Shown one piece after another: positions 1,351 to 13,529 of a DNA stretch of 64,000 bases; within the stretch, counting starts at the first letter, position 1; each line of letters begins with the position of its first letter. Under the pieces are notes generated by a model. The model saw nothing but the letters and a program-made list of their open reading frames with translations, searched no databases and was not told the DNA's origin. The position numbers and the translations under genes were made by a program. Origin of the DNA: an uncultured Chthonomonadaceae bacterium (lineage in GTDB: Bacteria; Armatimonadota; Chthonomonadetes; Chthonomonadales; Chthonomonadaceae); assembly GCA_963817895.1 (NCBI GenBank), contig CAWFQB010000014.1:480001-544000 (forward strand), read 5' to 3'.

Positions 1351-2292
1351 ATGGAACACAGGCAAGACACCGAAACGCGCAGCTTTCTCTGGCAAAAACC
1401 ACAACTTGGCCTGGTGTGCATCACGACTACGGAACGGGTACGCTTTCGGACGATTACGCGAACGCGCCTGCTGCAATTTCCCGCGCATGAACGCTCGTTT
1501 TTGCTGTACCATCTGTATCAGGACAATTTGAACCGGCTGGCGGGCGCGCTGGAGTTTTGCGCCCAAAACAACATCGGCATGTACCGGCTGTCCTCCAACC
1601 TGCTGCCCTTTGCCGACGATCCCACATACGAGGACGCGCTGCTTGCCTGTTCGGAAACCCTTGCCGCGATTGGCGCGCGGGCGGATGCGTTACACATCCG
1701 CCTGCTGGCGCACCCGGAACAATTTATCGTGCTGAGTTCCGACAGTCCGCAAGTGGTAGCGAACAGCATCCGTTCCCTGCGCGGACACGCCCGTATTCTG
1801 GACATGATGAACCAGCCGCGCTCACACGCCTGCCCGCTGATTCTGCACGGCGGCAAAGGCAACCGGGCGGACGCCCTTGTTCGGACGATTGACACACTCG
1901 ACGAAACAATGCGGGCGCGGCTGATCCTTGAAAACGATGAGGATGCGTACAGCAGCCGGGAAATCTTGACCGTTTGCCGACGCGCGGGAGTTCCGATGGT
2001 CTTCGACGCGCACCATCATGTGTGCCATGAGAAACTCTCCAGTTATGAAGACGCAAGCGTGATAGAGATGTTCTGGGCGGCGCGGGAAACGTGGCCCCTC
2101 CCACAATGGCAAATTACGCATATCTCCAATGGGCGCGCGTTTTTCGCTGACACCCGCCACAGCGACCTCGTAACGCAAATACCCTCCGTATTCCGCTACG
2201 CGCCGTGGATAGAAGTGGAAGCCAAAGCCAAAGAGCAGGCCATCGCCCTGCTTCAAGCCCGCTGGCAAAGCAGGCTGCCAACAGCATTGTAG
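1351..2292 (+). CDS. uvsE: UV DNA damage endonuclease
   Basis: LGLVCIT, MYRLSSNLLP, HPEQFIVLSS, LENDE, FDAHHH, HSD and EVEAKAKEQA motifs of UVDE. Confidence 0.92.
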   Translation: MEHRQDTETRSFLWQKPQLGLVCITTTERVRFRTITRTRLLQFPAHERSFLLYHLYQDNLNRLAGALEFCAQNNIGMYRLSSNLLPFADDPTYEDALLACSETLAAIGARADALHIRLLAHPEQFIVLSSDSPQVVANSIRSLRGHARILDMMNQPRSHACPLILHGGKGNRADALVRTIDTLDETMRARLILENDEDAYSSREILTVCRRAGVPMVFDAHHHVCHEKLSSYEDASVIEMFWAARETWPLPQWQITHISNGRAFFADTRHSDLVTQIPSVFRYAPWIEVEAKAKEQAIALLQARWQSRLPTAL

Positions 2293-2385
2293 GGGCGCTG
2301 CTTGCCGCGCCCTCTTTCGCGAGGGGTTCAGCCCTTGATTGCGAAATTAAGCGATTGAGGAGGGTTCAGCAAGCAGAACCCCTAC
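2289..2385. repeat. GTAG-type REP inverted pair (overlaps uvsE stop codon)
   Basis: GTAGGGGCGCTGCTTGCCGCGCCC ... GGGTTCAGCAAGCAGAACCCCTAC; related copies at 27609-27710 and 28952-29088. Confidence 0.8.
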
Positions 2386-2429
2386 GATGTATTCTTTTCC
2401 ACGAGATTACAATTTATTTGCGCAAAGGG

Positions 2430-2459
2430 TTGACAGCTGCGCAGTGGCAACGGTATACT
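2430..2459 (+). promoter_or_regulatory. Sigma70-type promoter of the arg operon
   Basis: TTGACA (2430-2435), 18-nt spacer, TATACT (2454-2459). Confidence 0.75.
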
Positions 2460-2490
2460 GCTATTATCTTTTGAAGGATATGATGAATTT

Positions 2491-2559
2491 ATGTTAGCAT
2501 ACAACATAAACAGTTCTTGTTCGGCATCCAGCCGTCGCCGTCAGCGTACCGGTTTCTAA
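2491..2559 (+). CDS. Putative arginine attenuator leader peptide (MLAYNINSSCSASSRRRQRTGF)
   Basis: 22-codon ORF between promoter and argC with CGT-CGC-CGT-CAG-CGT; GAAGGA at 2473-2478. Confidence 0.65.
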   Translation: MLAYNINSSCSASSRRRQRTGF

Positions 2560-2648
2560 GCCCACGCTGCGCGGCGCAAGTCGTTTTGCTTCGCAATTGA
2601 AGGTCGTGGGCCAATCCGAGGACGGAGGCTTGCGGCTTTTTTGTTTTG
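2560..2648 (+). promoter_or_regulatory. Putative attenuator (alternative antiterminator/terminator pairings and U-tract)
   Basis: GCCCACG 2560-2566 can pair with CGTGGGC 2605-2611; CGCAAGTC 2575-2582 can pair with GGCTTGCG 2627-2634; followed by TTTTTTGTTTT. Confidence 0.55.
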
Positions 2649-2712
2649 TGCTTACCAGCCGCCGGTCACACTGCACCGCGCGGCTTTTATATTGAGTCTG
2701 GAAGGTGCTGTT

Positions 2713-3774
2713 ATGATTGATGTAGGAGTTGTGGGGGCGTCAGGGTATGGCGGCGGGGAATTGCTGCGCCTGCTGCTGCGGCATCCCGATGTGCAGGTGA
2801 CAGCCGCCGTATCGGAAACGTATGCGGGCAAGCCGTTGTCTGCGGCGTTTCCCGGCCTGACGAATACCCGCGCAGATCAACTGCGATTTGAAAGTTATGG
2901 CGACGGCAGCCGTATCGCGCAATGCGACGTGGTGTTTCTGGCGCAGGAAAACACCAAAGCCATGCAGACCGCGCCCCATCTGATTGAGGCCGGGTGCAAA
3001 ATCGTGGATTTGTCCGCTGATTTCCGGTTTCGCAGACACAGACACATACGCGCAGTGGTATGGCATGGCACACGCCTGTCCGCGCCTCAATGCCGAGGCC
3101 GTATACGGGATGCCGGAACTGAACAAAGAGGCCATTCGCAAGGCGCGGATTGTCGGGCAATCCCGGCTGCCACGCCACTGCGGGAATCCTCGCCCTCGCG
3201 CCCCTTATGAAGAACAATCTGATTGATGTAAACAGTATCATCATTGATCTCCAAAACCGGCGTATCGGGCGCGGGACGGGCGAAATTCAGCCTCGACTAC
3301 CACTTTCCTGAAATCAATGAGAGCGTGAGCGCGTACAAAGTTGCGGGGACGCACCGCCACACGCCCGAAATCGAAATGGCGCTTCAGCCGCTTACCAATT
3401 CGCCAACGCCGCTTGCCGTGACGTTCACGCCACATCTGATTCCCATGACGCGCGGCATACTGGCAACCTGCTATGCCACCTGAAAACAACCGGCAGGCGT
3501 AGCCGAATTGAATCAACTGTATACCGGCAATTTTATGCCGACGCGCCCTTTGTCGCCGTTGTGGAAGACCATTTGCCTGCCACAAAACACACGCTCGGCA
3601 CTAACGTTTGCCATCTTGCCGTCAGCGTAGACAACCGTAACAACCGCGTCACCGATTATTTCCTGTCTCGACAACCTGATTAAAGGCGCGGCGGGTCAGG
3701 CCATTCAGAACATGAACCTGATGTGCGGTCTGGAAGAAACCGCAGGATTGGAAGGGGGAGGGTTATGGCCGTAA
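2713..3774 (+). CDS. argC: N-acetyl-gamma-glutamyl-phosphate reductase (several frameshifts)
   Basis: [63 protein letters not shown] spread across frames. Confidence 0.95.
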
Positions 3775-4404
3775 TGATAGAAAAGGAGAAAAGGAGAAGA
3801 GGAGAAGAGGAGACAGGAGGAAATAATGAAGTAAATCTCCCCTCATCCCTCATCCCTCATCCCTCATCCCTACCTGTCTTCGTCCGACTTTACCGCCCCG
3901 AAGACTACCCTACTGTTCTGGCTTTGTGGGAAGAAGCGAAACTGCGCCCGTATCTGGAACACGGAATTAGAACGGCTGATGGGTTCGGGAGGCGGCGCGT
4001 TGGTTGCTGTCGCGCCGCAGACGAAAGACGCGGGCGGGCTTTCAGAAGATCAAGCTGGAGAGTTCAGGAACGAGCAAGTTGTGGGCGTTATTTTGTGGTC
4101 GCACAATGGCAGCGTGGGCATTTTGTGGCGATTGGCGGTTGCGGAACATCAGCGAGGGCGGGGCATTGCCACAAAACTTTTGGACAGGGCGGAGCAGGAC
4201 ATTTACGAGGCGGGATTGAGCGGCGTAACCCTGCTCACCCGCGTCACAAACACGGTCGCCAAAAGTATGTATACCAAACGCGGCTACAAACATAACAGCC
4301 CTCTGGAATTTTGGGGCAAAAAACTGTCCGAACCGGGAACAGAAATACCGAACACCGAGAACTCTCAACCCTCAACTTCGAGCGAGGAGCAAACATCGTG
4401 CTGA
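3774..4404 (+). CDS. GNAT N-acetyltransferase (frameshifted), coupled to argC and argJ
   Basis: RLAVAEHQRGRGIATKLL acetyl-CoA motif; TAATG overlap with argC stop; overlaps argJ start. Confidence 0.8.
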
Positions 4405-5620
4405 CGCAGTGGAAGGATGTGGAAGCGGGCGTTACGTACCCGGAAGGCTTTGTCGCGTCGGCGGTGCGCTGCGGCCTGAAAACGGCGGGCGCGGATTTGG
4501 CGTTGCTCGTCAGCGACACGGCGGCGACCGTTGCCGGCGTGTTCACCACCAACCGGGTGCAGGCCGCGTGTGTGCAGTATTCCCGGCGCGTAACCCGCAA
4601 CGGAACCGCTCGCGCTATCCTTATCAATGCGGGCAACGCCAACGCCTGCAACGGCGAACAGGGCGACCACGACAACCGGACACTGGCCGAATGGGTATCG
4701 CGTCACCTCAATATTCCGCCGGATTCGGTACTCACCGCGTCAACGGGAATCATCGGGCATCTGATGCCGATGGATAAACTGCAAGCCGGCATTGCCGACG
4801 CGGTTGCCAATCTGGACCGGGACGAGGACACGGATGAAGCCGTTGCCCGCGCCATTATGACGACGGATACCGTTCCCAAATTTCGCGCCTGCGACGCGGA
4901 CAGCGACCAATGGGTTGCGCCCATTCGGTTCGGCGGCATGTGCAAGGGCGCGGGCATGATCGCGCCCAACATGGCGACCATGCTTGCCTTTCTCACGACG
5001 GATGCCCGCCTGCCCGCGCCCCTGCTTGCAGGAAGCCCTGAAACGCGCCGTTGCCGCCTCGTTCAACAGCGTCACCATTGACGGCGATACCAGTACCAAT
5101 GACATGGGCCTGCTGCTGGCATCCGGTATGGGCGAGGGCGTGATCTCCGTACCCGGCCCCGCCTTTGAAGATTTTGTCGAAGCCTTAACCCGCCTGTGCA
5201 TCGAGCTTGCCAAAGCCATTGCCCGCGACGGCGAGGGCGCAACCAAACTGGCGGAAATTATCGTTCGCGGCGCGTTGACGGAAGCCGGGGCGCATACGAT
5301 TGCGAAAACCATTGCCGAATCGCCGCTCGTGAAAACTGCCCTGTTCGGCAACGATCCGAACTGGGGCCGGTTGCTCATGGCGGCAGGACGCGCCGGGCGT
5401 TCCCTTCGACCCGACCAAAATAGACGTGCAAATCGGCCCGCATCTTGTCTGTTCGCAGGGCGGCAGCGTGGAATTCGACCGCGATGGGGCGCATGATTAT
5501 CTGACACAAAAAGACGTGCAAATCGTGCTGGACTTGAATCAGGGCGACGAACTCGCCACCGTCTGGACGTGCGATTACAGCTACGATTACATCAAAATCA
5601 ACGCAGAGTACCACACGTAG
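4398..5620 (+). CDS. argJ: Glutamate N-acetyltransferase/ornithine acetyltransferase (frameshifted)
   Basis: NAGNANAC, STGIIG, IMTTDT, KGAGMIAPNMATML, DGDTSTND, DGEGATK, DPNWGR, C-terminal YIKINAEYHT. Confidence 0.95.
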
Positions 5621-5711
5621 GCAAAGGATGAAGGATGAAGGATGAAGGATGAGTAAAATATGCATCGACATTCATCATTCATCACTCATCATTTGCTTTT
5701 TGGTCAACACC

Positions 5712-6524
5712 ATGCAATTACGCTCATTTGGCTATCGTACCGATCTGATTTTCGCGCGCTTTGAAGGCCGCATTACGGATAAAGGCGACTATTTGGTAAT
5801 CCAAACGCCCTCCAATCCGACCTTTTACTGGGGCAACTTTCTGCTGTTCGCGCATCCGCCGCAACCGGGGGATTATGAACGGTGGACAAAACTATTCGCG
5901 CAGGAGATAGGATCGCCCGAACAGGTGGGACATATTGCTCTTGCATGGGATAATACAGCAGGCGAAACCGGCGAGGTCGCGCCCTTTCTGGCAGCGGGCT
6001 TCGAGTTAGATACCGCTGTCGCGCTGACCGCCCGGCAAGTACAACTGCCGCCGAAGTTCAACCCCGATGTACAGGTACGCGCGCTTGAGTCGGAGGAGGA
6101 TTGGGAAACCGCCCTGCAAAACCAGATTGTACACAGGGAGCCGAAGTACAGTCTGGAAGGCTACACGACATTTCGGCGCGCGAAAATGGCATCTTATCGC
6201 GCGATGGTCGCGCAGGGGTTGGGGCATTGGTTCGGCGCGTTTGTGAATGATGAAATGGCAGGCGATTTAGGGCTGTTTGTGGACAGTACCCAGCGCGGCA
6301 TTGGCCGCTTCCAATTCGTCACCACCTACCCGGATTTTCGCAGGCAGGGAGTTTGCTCTACCCTTGTTTACAAGGCCGCCCAATTCGGCCTTACTTCGAT
6401 GGGTCTTGAAACACTGGTGATGATAGCGGACGAAGACTACTTTGCCGCCCGTATCTACGAGTCGGTAGGATTTCAGCCCGCCGAACGCCTGACAAATCTG
6501 CAATGGGTTGCAAACACAAAATGA
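5712..6524 (+). CDS. GNAT family N-acetyltransferase
   Basis: TPSNPTFYWGN N-terminal motif; RFQFVTTYPDFRRQGVC; IYESVGF. Confidence 0.85.
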   Translation: MQLRSFGYRTDLIFARFEGRITDKGDYLVIQTPSNPTFYWGNFLLFAHPPQPGDYERWTKLFAQEIGSPEQVGHIALAWDNTAGETGEVAPFLAAGFELDTAVALTARQVQLPPKFNPDVQVRALESEEDWETALQNQIVHREPKYSLEGYTTFRRAKMASYRAMVAQGLGHWFGAFVNDEMAGDLGLFVDSTQRGIGRFQFVTTYPDFRRQGVCSTLVYKAAQFGLTSMGLETLVMIADEDYFAARIYESVGFQPAERLTNLQWVANTK

Positions 6525-6997
6525 ACTTAAAACAACCAATTCATCTGCGCGTGATGAGTCGTCCGGCATTGGGGCAAATGGCTGCGGACGAGCCGTTTAT
6601 CCTGATTTCCGTCACCGATCCCGGTTCCGATGAGGCGTTGGTTGCGGACACGCCGCTGTGTCGCGGAGTCCTGCGGCTGCAATTCGACGATGCCGAGTAC
6701 AAAGGACAAACCCCACGCGGCAAAACCCTCATCAGCAAACAGGACGCCGACGCCATACTCGCGCTCATACACCGGCATGTCATGGAAGCGCAGGAGCCGG
6801 TACATACGATCATTTGCCAGTGCGAAATGGGGCGCAGCCGCTCGGCAGGCATCGCCGCTGCCCTGTCCAAAATTCTGACAGGCGAAGACGCCCACTTTTT
6901 CAGCGACTACTACCCGAATCGTTGGGTATACCAAACCATTTTAGACCAACACGCCCAACATCAGGAAGCAACAACCTCTTCCCTGACTCGGAAGTAA
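6521..6997 (+). CDS. Predicted protein-tyrosine/dual-specificity phosphatase-like protein
   Basis: Cx5R active-site loop CEMGRSRSAG; ISVTDP and LQFDD motifs. Confidence 0.75.
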   Translation: MNLKQPIHLRVMSRPALGQMAADEPFILISVTDPGSDEALVADTPLCRGVLRLQFDDAEYKGQTPRGKTLISKQDADAILALIHRHVMEAQEPVHTIICQCEMGRSRSAGIAAALSKILTGEDAHFFSDYYPNRWVYQTILDQHAQHQEATTSSLTRK

Positions 6998-7016
6998 TCA
7001 AACTTCAGACTTCCTG

Positions 7017-7119
7017 AGAGCCTATTCCAATAGGCCGGGTACAGAGAACGTACCCGTCTGAGTAGCCTGCGGCTAAACGTCCTTCGGACGTAAATGCTTT
7101 TCCTACTGGGACAGGCTCT
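7017..7119. mobile_element. ~100-bp palindromic MITE-like element, copy 1
   Basis: Imperfect terminal inverted repeats GAGCCTATTCCAATAGG / CCTACTGGGACAGGCTC; closely similar copy at 20004-20105. Confidence 0.7.
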
Positions 7120-7145
7120 AAGCGCGACCAGCCCCCATACAACCG

Positions 7146-7196
7146 CCTCCCCTCTCCTGGCGCGTTGCGCGGCAAGGAGAGGGGCCGGGGGTGAGG
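7146..7196. repeat. CCCCTCTCC...GGAGAGGGG-GGGGTGAGG palindromic repeat (family A)
   Basis: Near-identical to 36214-36264; related copies at 12131-12169, 27571-27782 (interrupted) and 37416-37512. Confidence 0.8.
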
Positions 7197-7279
7197 TCAA
7201 GCATCCCGCCCAAATTTCCTGTATAATAAGAGCAGGGACTTGCAGGCAGACTGCATAACTATCAACAGGTACTCACATA

Positions 7280-8146
7280 ATGCTACAAATTGATTCCAGC
7301 GCTCATGCGTCCGTACTGATTGAAGCCCTGCCCTATCTGCGGCAGTTTTACGGCAAAACCATTGTCGTCAAGTACGGCGGCAACGCCATGATTGACGAAA
7401 CGCTCAAAGCGCAGGTGATGCAGGATATTGCCCTGCTGCATTACGTGGGGATACGGCCTATTCTGGTACACGGCGGCGGGCCGGAAATCAGCGCCATGAT
7501 GAAGCAGATGGGACATGAACCCGCTTTCGTCGGCGGTCTGCGCGTGACCGACGCCGAAACTATGGAAATCGTCGAAATGGTGCTGGCAGGCAAAACCAAC
7601 AAAGGTATCGTATCCCTTCTCAACAAACAGGGCGCAAAGGCCGTCGGCTTGAGCGGCAAAGACGCCAATTTAATACAAGCCTATAAAATGGAATCGCCGC
7701 AGGGTGATCTGGGCTATGTCGGTGAAGTGGCAAAAGTAAACGCGGAACTGCTCACCCTTCTTGGCGAACAGGGCTATATTCCCGTAATCTCGTCCGTCGC
7801 CATCGGACCCGACGGTGAAAGCTACAATGTCAACGCCGACCATGTTGCGGGACACATTGCCGCAGCCGTGCAAGCCGCCAAACTCGTGATTTTAACGGAT
7901 GTGGAGGGATTGTACGCCGATTACAGCGACAAGACAAGCCTGATTTCCGAAATGGACGCAGAACAGGCCGATAGCATGATTGCCAGCGGCGCGGCGGAAC
8001 GGGGCATGATTCCCAAACTGCAAGCTTGTATTGTGGCTGTAGAGGGCGGCGTACCCCGCGCCCACCTGATAGACGGACGCCTGCCACACGCCCTGCTCAT
8101 CGAAATCTTTACGGACGCGGGTATCGGCACAATGGTACACGCTTAG
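7280..8146 (+). CDS. argB: Acetylglutamate kinase
   Basis: VVKYGGNAM, VHGGGPEI, GLRVTD, YNVNAD, GMIPK, LLIEIFTDAGIGT. Confidence 0.97.
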   Translation: MLQIDSSAHASVLIEALPYLRQFYGKTIVVKYGGNAMIDETLKAQVMQDIALLHYVGIRPILVHGGGPEISAMMKQMGHEPAFVGGLRVTDAETMEIVEMVLAGKTNKGIVSLLNKQGAKAVGLSGKDANLIQAYKMESPQGDLGYVGEVAKVNAELLTLLGEQGYIPVISSVAIGPDGESYNVNADHVAGHIAAAVQAAKLVILTDVEGLYADYSDKTSLISEMDAEQADSMIASGAAERGMIPKLQACIVAVEGGVPRAHLIDGRLPHALLIEIFTDAGIGTMVHA

Positions 8147-8261
8147 GTTAGGTTGTTAGTTGTTAGGTTATCAGGTTGTTAGGTTGAGGAAAAAAGATAT
8201 ACATTACTAACCTAAAGACTTAACAACCTAACAACCTGCCTCTTGGAGTATTACAAAAAAT

Positions 8262-8946
8262 ATGGCACGAAAAAATACAATCGCGCGTGATTTTTTAGCG
8301 GCGTGTCTGACGTTTGCGCTGCTCACGGGCAGGGCTTCAACACTGAGCCGCGCCGATTCCCGGCAGAACGTGGATGAGTACGCCTATGCCGTTTCCGACG
8401 CGCCTGCGCGTGACGGCCATAACGATACCTACGCGGACGCGCTCACGAATGAACTGCACTGGGGACATTTTCCCATTCGTGTCGCGTTTACCAACAGCAT
8501 GAGCAGCGACCGCGAAAAACTCGATGAGATTGCGCAGCGCGGTTTCGCTCAGTGGGTCAAGGCGACGCAGGGCGAAGTAAAGTACGAAGTGGTTTCAACG
8601 CCCTCCCGCGCCGATGTGACCGTCACGTATGAGGTTGTTCCTGCCCGTCCGTTCACGGGCGGCAAACTTGGCACAACGGGTTTCAATTACAACAAAACGC
8701 GCCGCCAGTTGTTTCATGCGGATATGCACCTGAATGTATGGGAAGGCATGACGCGCCGCGACCTGGAACGCTTTGAAAACACTGCTGCGCACGAGTTCGG
8801 CCACGCGCTCGGCATCAACGGCCACAGCCCCAACCCCGATGACTTGATGTACTTCACATCATCGCAATCGGTGGACCGCGCGCGACCTGAACACGCTGGC
8901 CTGCATAGACGGCTTCAAACGCCAAAAGAAAGACATACCGCTCTAA
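8262..8946 (+). CDS. Matrixin-family secreted zinc metalloprotease (C-terminal frameshift)
   Basis: Signal peptide; HEFGHALGINGHS zinc motif and Met-turn DLMY; RDLNTL continues in another frame to a stop at 8946. Confidence 0.8.
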
Positions 8947-9036
8947 CTGTCGACCGGATTCAACTAAATCAACAGGATGCGCAAAACGCAATCAAGAAAT
9001 CCTGCCAAAACACGCTCATAAACAGATGGAGACGCC

Positions 9037-10303
9037 ATGATACTCGACCTTGAAACCTACTCTTCCCACCTTCAACCCCCTTCCGCAGGCTATTGCATAC
9101 GCCCGAAGTGGACGCCGCGCACATCATGCAGACCGACAGCGAGTATGTGCTTGGCACGTATGCGCGTCAGCCGATTGTGTTTGTGCGCGGCGAGGGCGCG
9201 CGTTTGTGGGACAGCGAGGGGCGCGAGTATCTGGACTTTCTGGCGGGGATTGCCGTTGTGCAGGTGGGGCATTGCCATCCGCGCATTGCCGCACGCCATC
9301 GCAAATCAGGCGCAAACGCTGATGCAGGTCAGCAACCTGTACCACAACGCGCTGCAGGCCCCGCTTGCCAAACGCTTGTGCGAACTCGCGGGCATGGAAA
9401 AGGCGTTCTTCTGCAATTCCGGCGCGGAAGCGAACGAGGCCGCGCTGAAAATCGCCCGCAAATGGGGCAAAGCAGAAACGCGGCAGCGACTGCTTTGAGA
9501 TCATCACGTTTCAGGGTTCGTTTCACGGGCGCACGATGGGAACCGTGACCGCAACCGCGCAGCCCAAATACCAGACGCCATTCGCGCCGCTTGTGCCCGG
9601 CTTCCACTACGCGCCCCTCAACAACCTTCACGCGCTCGACGACCTTATCAGCGAAAAGACCTGCGCCGTAATGATTGAGCCGATACAGGGCGAGTCCGGC
9701 GTCAATGTCGCGTCCCCGGATTTTCTCAATGGCATCCGCGCCCTGTGCGACGAGGCCGAAGTGCTGCTTATCTTAGACGAAGTGCAGTGCGGCATGGGGC
9801 GAACGGGACGCTTCCTGGCCAGCCAGCTCGCGGGCGTTCAGGGCGATATTGTCACGCTTGCCAAAGGCATAGCCGACGGCTTTCCGATGGGCGCGTGTTT
9901 GACGCGGGGCGAAGCCGCGCATACGCTTGTTCCCGGCGATCACGGCAGCACGTTCGCGGGCCAGCCGCTCGCCTGCGCCGCCGCCCTCGCCACCTTAGAC
10001 GTTTTGGAAGACGAGAACCTGATGCAGCGCGCCGAGCAGACCGGGCAGTATTTCCGCAACGCCTTGAACCAACTTCGCGCCGATTTCCCCGCCCGCATCA
10101 CCGAGGTGCGCGGACACGGTCTGATGGTGGGCGTCCAGTTCGCGCAGCCGGAAGCGAAGACTTTGTATCAAGGTTTACTCAAGGCGGGCATCATCGCCAA
10201 CGCGACCGGCGACTTTGTTTTGCGCTTCGTTCCCCCGCTCATCGTCACAAACGACGACTGTGACCGCGTTGTAGACACGTTGCGCGACTTGCTGCAAGCG
10301 TAG
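9037..10303 (+). CDS. argD: Acetylornithine aminotransferase (frameshifted)
   Basis: YLDFLAGIAV, FFCNSGAEANEAA, EPIQGESG, DEVQCGMGRTG, TLAKG, HGSTFAG. Confidence 0.93.
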
Positions 10304-10326
10304 CCAGTTTGTGGAGGAGATTTTCC

Positions 10327-11097
10327 ATGACAACCACCCTTGAAAAACCGATTGTTCAACAGCCGACTGTGGAGACTTCGCAAACTGAATCGCCCTTACC
10401 TGAAACGTTGCTGTCTGACCCGTTGCGCTTTGAGGAGCCGAGGCGCCGATTATGGACTCGCGCCGATTACCATAAGGCAGGCGAACTCGGCTTTTTCGGC
10501 ATGGAGGAACGACTGGAACTAATCAATGGGGAGGTGTGGAAAAAAATGAGTCCACAAGGAGCGCCACATGCTTTCGGCGTCGGGGTGGTCGCCGAAGTAT
10601 TACGCGGAGCATTTCCAGCAGGTTTCCACATCCGTGAGGAAAAGCCGCTTGTTTTAACGGACCTGACGGAACCGATTCCGGATGTTATGGCGGTTCGAGG
10701 AACGCTGCGCCAAAATCCCGGATTTGCAACTTCCGCTAATGCGGTACTTGTTGTAGAAATATCGGCGTCATCGCTCAAATTCGATCAAAATTACAAAGCC
10801 GAAGCGTATGCCCGGTCTGGAATCCCCGACTATTGGGTGCTGAACCAACGCGCCCGCCAGTTGGAAGTGCGCCGCGAGCCGGGACTGCTTGGCGATGGAC
10901 AATGGGGCTACCGTTCCCTGCAAATAGTGCTTGCGGATGGGCAAATTTCCCCGCTTGCCGCGCCACAAATTGTCATCAAAGTTGTCGATCTGCTGCCTAC
11001 CCTGTCGCAAACTTCCTCGGAGGCAACATCAGACGACAGCGCAGCAAACACAGCCGATTTACAGCCCAATGTGTCAGACCCTCCGCAGAATGATTGA
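10327..11097 (+). CDS. Uma2 (DUF820) family endonuclease
   Basis: ELINGEV, PIPDVMAV, VVEIS, KAEAYARSGIPDYWV. Confidence 0.9.
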   Translation: MTTTLEKPIVQQPTVETSQTESPLPETLLSDPLRFEEPRRRLWTRADYHKAGELGFFGMEERLELINGEVWKKMSPQGAPHAFGVGVVAEVLRGAFPAGFHIREEKPLVLTDLTEPIPDVMAVRGTLRQNPGFATSANAVLVVEISASSLKFDQNYKAEAYARSGIPDYWVLNQRARQLEVRREPGLLGDGQWGYRSLQIVLADGQISPLAAPQIVIKVVDLLPTLSQTSSEATSDDSAANTADLQPNVSDPPQND

Positions 11098-11108
11098 GAT
11101 AAAATCGC

Positions 11109-12090
11109 ATGGACGCCAACCAACTCCGACAATTAATTGAAGATAACGCCCACTCGTGGCGCAAGAAATCCGTTATCAGCCTGTTCGACTTTTCAACCGA
11201 ACAGATACGCGCCGCGCTCGACGTTGCGGCGGGGCTGAAACAGTACGACCTTGCCCGTGAGCGCAGCCTGTACTGGCAGTATCCGCGCACTCTCGCGCTG
11301 CTGTTTGAAAAACCCTCCCTGCGCACAAGGGTCAGTTTCGAGGCGGGCATGGCGCACCTGCACGGACAGGCCATTTACCTTGCGCCCGGTGACGTGGGAT
11401 TGGGAGCGAGGGAACCGGTTGCCGATGTGGCGGGCGCTCTCTCGCGGTGGGTAGACATCATCGCCGCCCGCGTGTTCAAGCACGAAACCGTTGAGGAACT
11501 GGCGCAGCATGGCACGATTCCCGTCATCAACGCGCTCAGTGACCGCGAACATCCCATACAGGCGTTTGCCGACCTGCTCACGCTTGCAGGAGCAGAAGGG
11601 GCCGCTCGGCAACAACCTGAAACTGGCGTATGTGGGCGACGGCAACAATGTTTTACACGCCCTTTTGCTCGCCTGCGCCAAAATGGGGGTAAACTTAAGC
11701 GCGGCCTGCCCTGCCGGTTACGAGCCGTCCGGCAATTATGTGCAGGAAGCCACCCGCATCGCGCAACAGACGGGCGCAAGCGTTGAGATTGTTGCCGACC
11801 CTGTTCAGGCTGTTCAAAACGCCGACGCCGTGTATACCGACGTGTGGGCCAGCATGGGACAGGAAGACGAAAAAGCTGCCCGGATGCAGATTTTCGCGCC
11901 CTACCAGATCAATACAACCCTGCTTTCCCACGCCAAACCGGATGTATCCGTTTTGCATTGCCTGCCCGCGCATCGCGGCGAAGAGGTTTCCGCCGATGTC
12001 ATGGACGCGCACAACACGGTTATTATGAATCAGGCGGAAAACCGGCTGCACACGCAGAAGGCGTTGCTGACGTTAATCTTAGGATTGTAA
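11109..12090 (+). CDS. argF: Ornithine carbamoyltransferase (frameshifted near 11590)
   Basis: FEKPSLRTRVSF, HPIQAFAD, YVGDGNNV, YTDVWASMGQE, HCLPAHRGEEV, QAENRLH. Confidence 0.95.
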
Positions 12091-12182
12091 GTAACTATTC
12101 AGCCCTATCTCGAAACTGATTTGAATAGTTCCCCTCTCCCAAACTTGGGAGAGGGGCTAGGGGTGAGGGCCTGAATAGTTAC
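12091..12182. mobile_element. 92-bp MITE with 12-bp TIRs and 8-bp target-site duplication
   Basis: GATTGTAA|GTAACTATTCAG ... CTGAATAGTTAC|GATTGTAA; encloses a family A palindrome. Confidence 0.85.
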
Positions 12183-12202
12183 GATTGTAATAAGGAGTTT
12201 TC

Positions 12203-13529
12203 ATGCGTAAGATTGTCCTCGTATATTCGGGCGGGCTGGATACGTCCGTGTGTATTCCGCTGATGAAGGAAGAGTATGGCTTCGACCATGTGATTACGGT
12301 CACGGTAGACGTGGGGCAGGCGCGGGAAGACATCGCGCAGGCCGAGGAACGCGCCCGCCGCTTTGGAACCGAACACTATACGGTTGACGCCCGCGCTCTG
12401 TTCGTGGAGCATTTCTGCTGGCCTGCCGTCAAAGCGAACGGCGATTATCAGGGCTATCCGATTTCAACGTCTATCGCTCGCCCGCTCATCGCCCTGAAAG
12501 CCGTCGAAAAAGCGCAGGAGTTGGGCGCGACCGCGTTCGGGCATGGCTGCACCGGCAAGGGCAACGATCAATTCCGCATCGAATACATCATGCGGACGCT
12601 GATGCCGGATGTCGAAATCATCGCGCCCATGCGCGAAGGCCGCAAAATGCCGGATGGCAGCCGATCTCCCTGGACCCGCAGCGAAGAGATCGAATACGCT
12701 AACGAACACGGACTGGACATTTCACAAACCACAAGCAAAATCTGGAGCATTGACGAAAACCTGTGGGGGCGCAGCGTGGAGGGCGGGCGATTGGAAGAGC
12801 CGAATTATGCGCCCCCGGAAGAGATTTACCAGTGGACACGCGGCCTTAAAGACTGCCCGGACGAGGCGCGGGAACTCACCATAGGCTTTGAAAACGGCGT
12901 ACCCGTCGCGCTGGACGGCAAAAAGTACGCTCCCTTCGATCTGGTCGTGGAACTCAATAAAATCGCGGGCGAAAACGGCGTCGGGCGCGTGGACATCATG
13001 GAAGACCGGATGCTCGGCCTGAAAGTGCGCGAAAATTACGAGTGTCCCGCCGCCGTCGTGATTCTGGCCGCGCACCGCGCGCTCGAAGCCCTCGTATGCA
13101 CCCAATCGGAACTGAAGTTCAAGAAATCGGTAGACGCGGAATGGGGCGAAATGGCCTATAAGGGGCTGTGGTTCGACCCGCTGAAGGAAGACTTGGAAGC
13201 GTTCATCAACAAGGTACAGGAGCGCGTTACGGGAACCGTCAATCTGCGGCTGGCGAAGGGCAACGCCATCATCGTCGGGACGAGCGAGCGAATTGGCGCT
13301 GTACAACGAGGATTTAGCCAGTTTCGACAGCAAAACGTTCAATCAGGCCGATTCGCTCGGCATTGTCAAAAATTACGGGATGCAGTCCAAACTCTACTTC
13401 CAGTTGAAGTACCCGGCGGGAGCCTTGCTTGCCGGCAACATGGAACAAAAATTGCTCGGCAGCCAACCCACCGCCCATGAGCAGGCCGATGCGGGCGATG
13501 CGGGCGCGACGGGCGATTACAGCGGTTAA
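12203..13529 (+). CDS. argG: Argininosuccinate synthase (frameshift near 13285)
   Basis: YSGGLDTS, HGCTGKGNDQFR, SIDENLWGRS, DIMEDRMLGLKVRENYE. Confidence 0.96.

Follow-up and report, generated by a model that had tools for sequence, protein, structure and literature searches.

A conserved leader upstream of argC in a 64,000-nucleotide stretch of DNA from an uncultured Chthonomonadaceae bacterium (hereafter the window) is very probably a ribosome-dependent transcription attenuator that senses charged Arg-tRNA. An original prediction, made from the letters of the window, had proposed this class of mechanism, namely Arg-codon leader-peptide attenuation of arg genes, and it proved to be well supported by conservation of the leader in relatives, by selection on its reading frame, by covariation of its helices and by the scarcity of ArgR.

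Transcription of the leader is predicted to begin at a sigma-70-type promoter on the forward strand (positions 2430–2459), the strand that carries the whole leader and argC. Its −35 element TTGACA (2430–2435), 18 nt spacer and −10 element TATACT (2454–2459) are as in the original prediction; they agree with the consensus at 11 of 12 positions and place the inferred start site near 2466. Two promoter-like sites were found against a shuffle mean of 0.4, and a comparable promoter lies upstream of the uORF in 22 of 28 leaders. The argC gene itself (2713–3774) begins at an ATG at 2713, is preceded by a Shine–Dalgarno sequence, GGAAGG (2700–2705), that falls outside the hairpins described below, and heads an arg cluster with the order argC–GNAT–argJ–GNAT–orf–argB–matrixin–argD–Uma2–argF–argG that extends to about 13,480; argH and argS are located elsewhere in the genome. 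The genome has a GC content of 57% and its assembly is 81% complete. Within the window (2713–13480) frameshifts interrupt argC, argJ, argD, argF and probably also argG; these are probably sequencing errors, and argC is intact in nearly all relatives.

Between the promoter and argC lies a leader peptide ORF of 22 codons (2491–2559) with a variable N-terminus, a conserved RRR(E/Q)R near its end and a stop codon that abuts segment 2 of the RNA (see below). The four clustered Arg codons that had drawn attention to this ORF are confirmed: the control run CGT CGC CGT (CAG) CGT occupies 2533–2547, with Arg at 2533–2541 and 2545–2547, and Arg is found at the four positions in 25, 29, 28 and 24 of 29 leaders. 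Arg runs alone are common by chance (in this genome 621 of 36,142 small ATG ORFs have four Arg in five codons, and six of the 621 lie behind a near-consensus promoter), so that the case rests on conservation in relatives. Taking the codon after the Arg run as an anchor and seeking an ATG 21–75 nt upstream of it, with one truncated leader (L019) left out, we found an in-frame ATG without an intervening stop in the Arg frame of 25 of the 28 leaders, compared with 0 and 2 in the other frames; when GTG and TTG starts are counted too, the figures become 28 as against 7 and 4. The nine-codon control window contains three to six Arg codons in all 29 leaders, and the preceding N-terminal codons have six Arg in 252. 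A stop codon follows 12–15 nt past the Arg run, just ahead of segment 2, in 22 of 29 leaders; in the other seven the ORF runs on through segment 2 and its translation would mask that segment equally. The segment 2 core in turn begins 17–20 nt past the Arg run in 28 of the 29. Judged by these comparisons of related sequences, the leader ORF is under selection as a reading frame.

Initiation on this ORF had been a source of doubt, as the Shine–Dalgarno-like GAAGGA (2473–2478) lies 12 nt ahead of the leader ATG. This caveat largely falls away: 17 of 28 leaders examined have a Shine–Dalgarno-like 4-mer, and in 12 of these 17 the spacing is 9–14 nt. A 5-codon ORF in another frame (2480–2497) begins just past GAAGGA and its stop overlaps leader codon 2; on its position it could compete for, or feed, leader initiation. 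The context of the leader stop is TAAG in the window and TAG in most relatives, and the extra A may be a sequencing error.

The choice of Arg codons is itself biased. Amongst the 132 Arg codons in the 29 leaders there are 77 CGT, 39 CGC, six AGG, six CGA, two CGG and two AGA, so that CGT accounts for 58% compared with about 14% in the long ORFs of this genome, and CGC for 39 of 132 compared with roughly 46%. Such a bias is what selective tRNA charging would lead one to expect in control regions, according to the available text of PMC1183508. ARAGORN returned candidates for the Arg anticodons GCG, TCG, CCG and TCT in the assembly, one GCG call looking spurious, but did not find the anticodon ACG there, and TadA was not identifiable by a deaminase search of the genome. 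A single contig (C3) carries 22 tRNA genes, including those with the Arg anticodons TCG and GCG.

The residues around the Arg run bear on an alternative explanation, in which the nascent RRR(E/Q)R peptide is an arrest peptide, comparable to SpeFL, TnaC or the fungal arginine attenuator peptide (AAP), that detects, within the ribosome, either arginine in its free form or ornithine or citrulline as its precursors, and operates the same RNA switch. The fungal AAP (Neurospora arg-2, yeast CPA1) is encoded by a uORF through which arginine controls an arginine-biosynthetic gene but, unlike the leader described here, it is eukaryotic, with a conserved peptide that stalls ribosomes in high arginine and blocks scanning, the reverse of the logic proposed here, and involves no RNA hairpin switch. 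Glu follows the Arg run in 25 of 29 leaders and Gly is found three codons on in 15 of 29, which exceeds what codon sensing would need, and SpeFL is, in the accessible part of 10.1101/604074, an Arg-codon leader able to sense ornithine. We nevertheless regard an arrest peptide as improbable. The peptide has no Pfam match, its length before the anchor varies from 11 to 25 codons, its N-terminal two thirds are free to vary and only RRR(E/Q)R and, in part, the Gly are conserved. The Glu/Gln codon is part of segment 1 and, in this genus, changes together with segment 2, so that RNA pairing can explain its conservation, and Trp codons replace Arg on the same scaffold before trp genes (see below). 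Salmonella orf34 and E. coli SpeFL do resemble our leader in being bacterial uORFs whose consecutive Arg codons sense arginine (PMC6386406, 10.1101/604074); as described in the available text of these sources they differ from it in controlling speF (ornithine decarboxylase) and in encoding a conserved arrest peptide of 34 amino acids that binds ornithine.

For codon sensing by a stalled ribosome, what matters is the RNA that follows the Arg run. Six segments can be recognised. Segment 1 (2536–2547), within the Arg codons, pairs with 2564–2576 of segment 2 (2560–2576) to form the 1:2 protector, and 2560–2566 of segment 2 pairs with segment 3 to form the 2:3 antiterminator. Segment 3 (2599–2612) also pairs with segment 4 (2627–2640), giving a hairpin capped by a 4-bp hairpin (2615–2626) and running into a U-tract (2637–2647); together these make up terminator 1 (2599–2647). 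Segment 5 (2657–2667) pairs with segment 6 (2675–2685) in a second terminator-like hairpin (2657–2693) with a U-run that is short in the window (2685–2688), but it can pair with segment 4 instead of segment 6 (helix 4:5). Helices 1:2, 2:3 and 3:4 overlap in bases and are thus mutually exclusive. The local hairpin at 2599–2640 (−22.7 kcal/mol) appears in the minimum free energy structure of all nine stretches folded and also in the alignment consensus; the folding z-score of the leader is −2.57, with 3 of 200 shuffles as stable. This hairpin and its U-tract are predicted to form an intrinsic terminator preceding argC.

The picture differs in part from that first proposed, in which 2560–2566 with 2605–2611 was the antiterminator, 2575–2582 with 2627–2634 was the terminator stem, and the two were mutually exclusive. 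The first pairing holds up: it is complementary and conserved, and because it removes the 5′ arm of terminator 1 it qualifies as a true antiterminator. The U-tract and the start of argC are likewise where they had been placed. As for the second pairing, the complementarity is present (eight pairs, one of them G-U; duplex values of −15.9 in the window and −18.8 in the related leader L035) but the terminator role was rejected: it is 62% paired across relatives, a level reached by 31 of 500 shuffles, cognate segments have no pairing advantage over non-cognate ones (2442 of 5000 permutations), and it uses the 3′ strand of the real terminator 1, whose stem is at 2599–2640. Nor are the two pairings mutually exclusive, for they cross but have no bases in common. 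In this genus alone, the 2575–2582/2627–2634 pairing may help to stabilise the read-through state. A caveat that the terminator stem has a long branched loop falls away with it, the true terminator being a compact hairpin, and two helices had been missed altogether, 1:2 (2536–2547 with 2564–2576) and the hairpin with a U-run at 2657–2688.

Alignment of argC upstream regions from relatives, which had been suggested as a check, shows both a conserved Arg-rich uORF and covarying stems. For 2:3, pairing reaches 94.1% in an unfitted MAFFT alignment, where 14 cells have changed on both sides and slid controls lie at 29–49%. For the terminated state, made up of 1:2, 3:4 and 5:6, pairing is 78.7% and there are 70 such double-change cells. 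In either case 0 of 500 shuffles did as well, although the relatives are kin and not independent, so that shuffle counts overstate significance and are not probabilities. Taken singly, 3:4 is 80.8% paired, 5:6 87.3% and 4:5 80.8%, 1:2 being the least conserved helix at 69%. Cognate segments also pair better than segments swapped between leaders, at 0 of 5000 each for 2:3, 3:4, 4:5 and 5:6 and 22 of 5000 for 1:2. Six control pairings served as a comparison; one was marginal (166 of 5000) and the other five did not exceed swapped segments. To follow single pairs we used a FastTree ArgC tree of 28 relatives, from which the window was left out on account of its frameshifted argC, and counted changes over 26 rows, leaving out L017 (deleted) and L024 (misaligned). 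The central A-U/G-C pair of 2:3 shows five and six changes per side, with six joint, and so counted its two sides have changed in concert again and again; in the terminator, each of the seven G-C cases retains a G opposite. In helix 4:5, 6 of the 26 rows carry an A-C mismatch that is not compensated, and the pairing of this helix may in part be a by-product of the GCGGC at the end of both segment 4 and segment 6.

Several positions in the leader are nearly invariant, as might be expected of an RNA that binds a protein or metabolite in the manner of a riboswitch or T-box, with the uORF incidental. That this genome has three T-box-like elements lends such an RNA some further credit. It is nonetheless highly unlikely to account for the leader: the conserved bases are those that need two pairing partners, there is strong selection on the frame with synonymous variation at the Arg codons, and neither a T-box nor any other Rfam family matches at the locus. 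Specifically, the T-box model RF00230 gave no match at argC and none in 1800–3200 at E up to 10, Rfam as a whole gave only three chance matches in 1800–3200, far below gathering scores, and no matches were seen in the 20 scanned of 60 phylum argC loci. The leader likewise has no sequence match to the Rfam leader families. The T-box-like elements (L001, L002 and L003, on contigs C1 and C3) score just under the Rfam cut-off and precede valS, ilvB and thrC; going by these matches, T-boxes and leader-peptide attenuation would coexist in this genome.

How the six segments could work as an attenuator is set out as follows. When Arg-tRNA is scarce, a ribosome would stall on 2533–2547 and block segment 1, leaving 2560–2566 free to pair with 2605–2611 once these have been transcribed and so to pre-empt terminator 1; the freed segment 4 would then pair with segment 5, pre-empting hairpin 2, and polymerase would enter argC. 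When arginine is plentiful, the ribosome would reach the stop codon (2557–2559) and cover segment 2, allowing 3:4 to form and transcription to end near 2644–2647; 5:6 would provide a further stop near 2690. In the absence of translation 1:2 would form, making termination the default.

We modelled this by folding growing transcripts with the ribosome footprint masked, the footprint extending about 12 nt past the codon (PMC4833913, in the text available). Such folding under a constraint, a check proposed in similar form at the outset, gives the three classical states. With a stalled ribosome masked, the probability of 2:3 is 0.98–0.99 up to a 3′ end at 2632; with the ribosome at the stop codon it is 0.0 and that of 3:4 is 0.97–0.99; and in the unmasked transcript, with no ribosome, 1:2 forms (0.95–1.0) and then 3:4. 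Seven leaders from outside the sample (see below) fold in the same way as that of the window. At equilibrium, once 2636 is free, 2:3 gives way to 3:4 (0.91–0.95) even when the ribosome is stalled, and 2:3 with 4:5 is less stable than the fully terminated fold by 4.8 kcal/mol. In the stalled state with a 3′ end at 2670, the combination of 2:3 and 4:5 has a probability of 0.61 under one mask and 0.02 under the other. Since the terminator wins at equilibrium, the model implies that the switch would have to be kinetic.

From the layout of the leaders we take termination to be the most likely output: the leader lies anywhere from about 10 to 777 nt ahead of argC, and the argC Shine–Dalgarno sequence is outside the hairpins. 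The same two observations count against a real ribosome-driven switch that acts mainly on argC translation, on mRNA stability or via Rho and not by intrinsic termination, as do the U-rich tails found after both hairpins in most leaders. The short U-run after hairpin 2 and the lack of a U-tract after 3:4 in some relatives (L046 and L049) speak for such an output, and there is a precedent in Salmonella orf34, whose Arg codons control Rho, RNase G and access to the RBS, without an intrinsic terminator, in the available text of PMC6386406 and 10.1101/604074. On balance there is very little likelihood that the leader works in this way.

ArgR/AhrC repression and T-box riboswitches are the usual controls of bacterial arg genes, arginine synthesis being taught as repressor-controlled, and the arg operons of E. 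coli have reportedly been tested for attenuation and found to be without it. The leader shares with these controls its target pathway and probably its physiological outcome; the differences are that a search for ArgR found none in this genome and few in the phylum sample, and that there is no T-box at argC. In the search for ArgR (PF01316), a further check proposed at the outset, there were 0 matches in this genome, with its 81% complete assembly, 1 in 61 order-level genomes and 0 in 44 high-quality relatives. Across the phylum there were matches in 2 of 151 genomes and 2 of the 134 high-quality ones, which is not proof of absence; the search was positive in 9 of 14 control genomes. The sole match among the 61 order-level genomes (L054, on contig C471 of genome G010) is on a short contig, next to a second, partial argC, and is either a transfer or a binning error; G010 also carries the leader, at its main argC. 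The attenuator would stand in for ArgR, apparently missing in this lineage, and would account for how arginine synthesis is controlled in a phylum whose sampled genomes yielded hardly any ArgR.

The mechanism of attenuation is itself textbook material. The Salmonella his attenuator has a C:D hairpin. Its other hairpins (hisL) are given as A:B, B:C, D:E and E:F in the available text of PMC4046918, and it shares with the leader described here a short leader ORF, clustered cognate codons and six alternating segments, such that stalling would favour 2:3 and 4:5, full translation or none would lead to the terminator, and the untranslated default would be termination. Differences from his, again within the text available, are that the control codons are three to six Arg and not seven His, that arg genes are controlled, that the phylum is another one and that 3:4 here also has a U-tract, so that two terminator-like hairpins stand in series. 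With the trp, leu, thr, ilv and pheA attenuators of E. coli and Salmonella, as covered by the accessible part of PMC1183508, the leader has in common product-cognate control codons, a biased codon choice and a stop codon at which a ribosome covers segment 2; the trp leader, however, has four segments and one terminator, in contrast to six segments and two terminator-like hairpins here. The attenuators listed in that part of PMC1183508 are trp, his, leu, thr, ilv and pheA, with arg not among them. Besides Salmonella orf34 and SpeFL, the closest case is the Pseudomonas carA leader, where attenuation is by pyrimidines (PMC4997734); for Cys, leader-peptide attenuation has been predicted (PMC8632094). 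Searches of the openly accessible full-text literature brought up no leader-peptide attenuator that acts on arginine synthesis in bacteria. The two-terminator relay and the Arg/Trp swap described below would be the newest features, and they are less certain than the sensing of arginine. An Arg-codon attenuator would fill a gap beside attenuation by Trp, His, Leu, Thr, Ile/Val and Phe. At about 250 nt, and with natural compensatory variants, the leader could also be put to use as a compact sensor of arginine or of Arg-tRNA.

The distribution of the leader was determined in a sample of 50 argC loci from 50 of 60 relatives. A leader is present within 600 nt of argC in 28 of the 50 loci (20 identified by pattern and eight by inspection) and a 29th lies 777 nt from argC (L057); by family, there are 23 in 32 loci of the window's own family, 6 in 16 of a sister family and 0 in 2 of a third. 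No leader was seen in 21 of the 50 loci, one of which has only 80 nt of upstream sequence. Two leaders (L014 and L027) are without 5:6. L017 has lost segments 3–4, between two similar short repeats, and L006 and L022 retain only a 5:6-like hairpin ahead of argC; in view of these remnants all three are apparent decaying attenuators.

A covariance model built from the 29 leaders was used to search 151 phylum genomes with strict filters. There were 19 matches at E up to 0.01, of which 13 scored at least 42 bits: that in the window itself, five in genomes used for training and seven in genomes new to the model. Each of the seven out-of-sample matches precedes argC, two of the ArgC being confirmed, and one distant family accounts for six of the seven; three weak matches (L070, L074 and L075) looked like chance and were discarded. 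Within this genome we found one covariance-model match only (150 of 1752 candidates being scored) and one nhmmer match, and saw no leader before trpE, argH or argS. When regions upstream of argC were taken from 60 more loci, all in other families, a script flagged six with a promoter, an Arg-cluster uORF and a U-rich tail, and three more Arg leaders were recognised by eye in ten of the 60. Arg leaders are thus seen in five further families (three of three loci in f14, one of one in f15, two of two in f25, two of two in f33 and one of one in f29), although just one of the 60 regions gave a clear covariance-model score. In most of the remaining 51 no promoter was seen near argC.

Four partial matches to the model, covering only 3:4 and 5:6, lie not before arg genes but before trpE (L068 and L069) and trpS (L071 and L072), in four other genomes belonging to other families of the phylum. 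Each has a promoter and a uORF with two or three Trp codons. That Trp codons are found before trp genes and Arg codons before arg genes suggests that the sensed codon tracks the downstream pathway on a similar scaffold. The broadest reading of these data is that, across much of Armatimonadota, a codon-swappable attenuator replaces ArgR, with Arg codons before argC and Trp codons before trpE and trpS, and that in it a stalled ribosome disables two serial terminators by strand relay, 2:3 freeing segment 4 to capture segment 5. On this view entire bacterial lineages would subject arginine synthesis, long an exception among the amino acid pathways, to classical attenuation. We advance this tentatively, at somewhat less than even chances. 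The tandem-terminator relay and the Arg/Trp codon swap would bear on how attenuators evolve. In L069 and L071 the hairpin unit appears to be repeated.

A degenerate pattern scan of species genomes matched at least 120 stretches, mostly by chance, and is uninformative on absence from other phyla. When 80 of the listed stretches were tested with the model, three scored, at 111–141 bits, in records labelled Chthonomonas, Chthonomonadaceae or Chthonomonadales, which we take to belong to Armatimonadota; two more leaders (L165 and L191) were recognised by inspection among the other 40 listed. In one named record with a leader, ArgC is 88% identical to that of the window over 84 residues. Named leader-bearing records may overlap the sampled relatives and are not counted separately. 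A soil metatranscriptome yielded a single 158-nt contig, at a depth of 3.8, with seven differences over 2497–2614; it runs into a relative's hairpin and apparent adapter letters and, as a single contig, cannot show expression, transcript ends or level. There was no coverage of argC in that metatranscriptome.

A second design of Arg leader is found before argC at five loci (L224, L242, L243, L255 and L256), where the uORF ends in RARR(G/K) and is followed by a single GC-rich hairpin with a U-tract; the leaders of f15, f25 and f33 have this shorter RARR motif and apparently a single terminator. Elsewhere in the window, an extended −10-like sequence, TGTATAAT, is present at 7220–7227, about 50 nt upstream of argB and behind repeat-rich DNA, and on sequence grounds may be a second, internal promoter ahead of argB. 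Upstream of the arg promoter (281–1098 and 1351–2292) lie a PIN-domain gene with a small upstream partner, the two forming a toxin–antitoxin-like pair, and uvsE.
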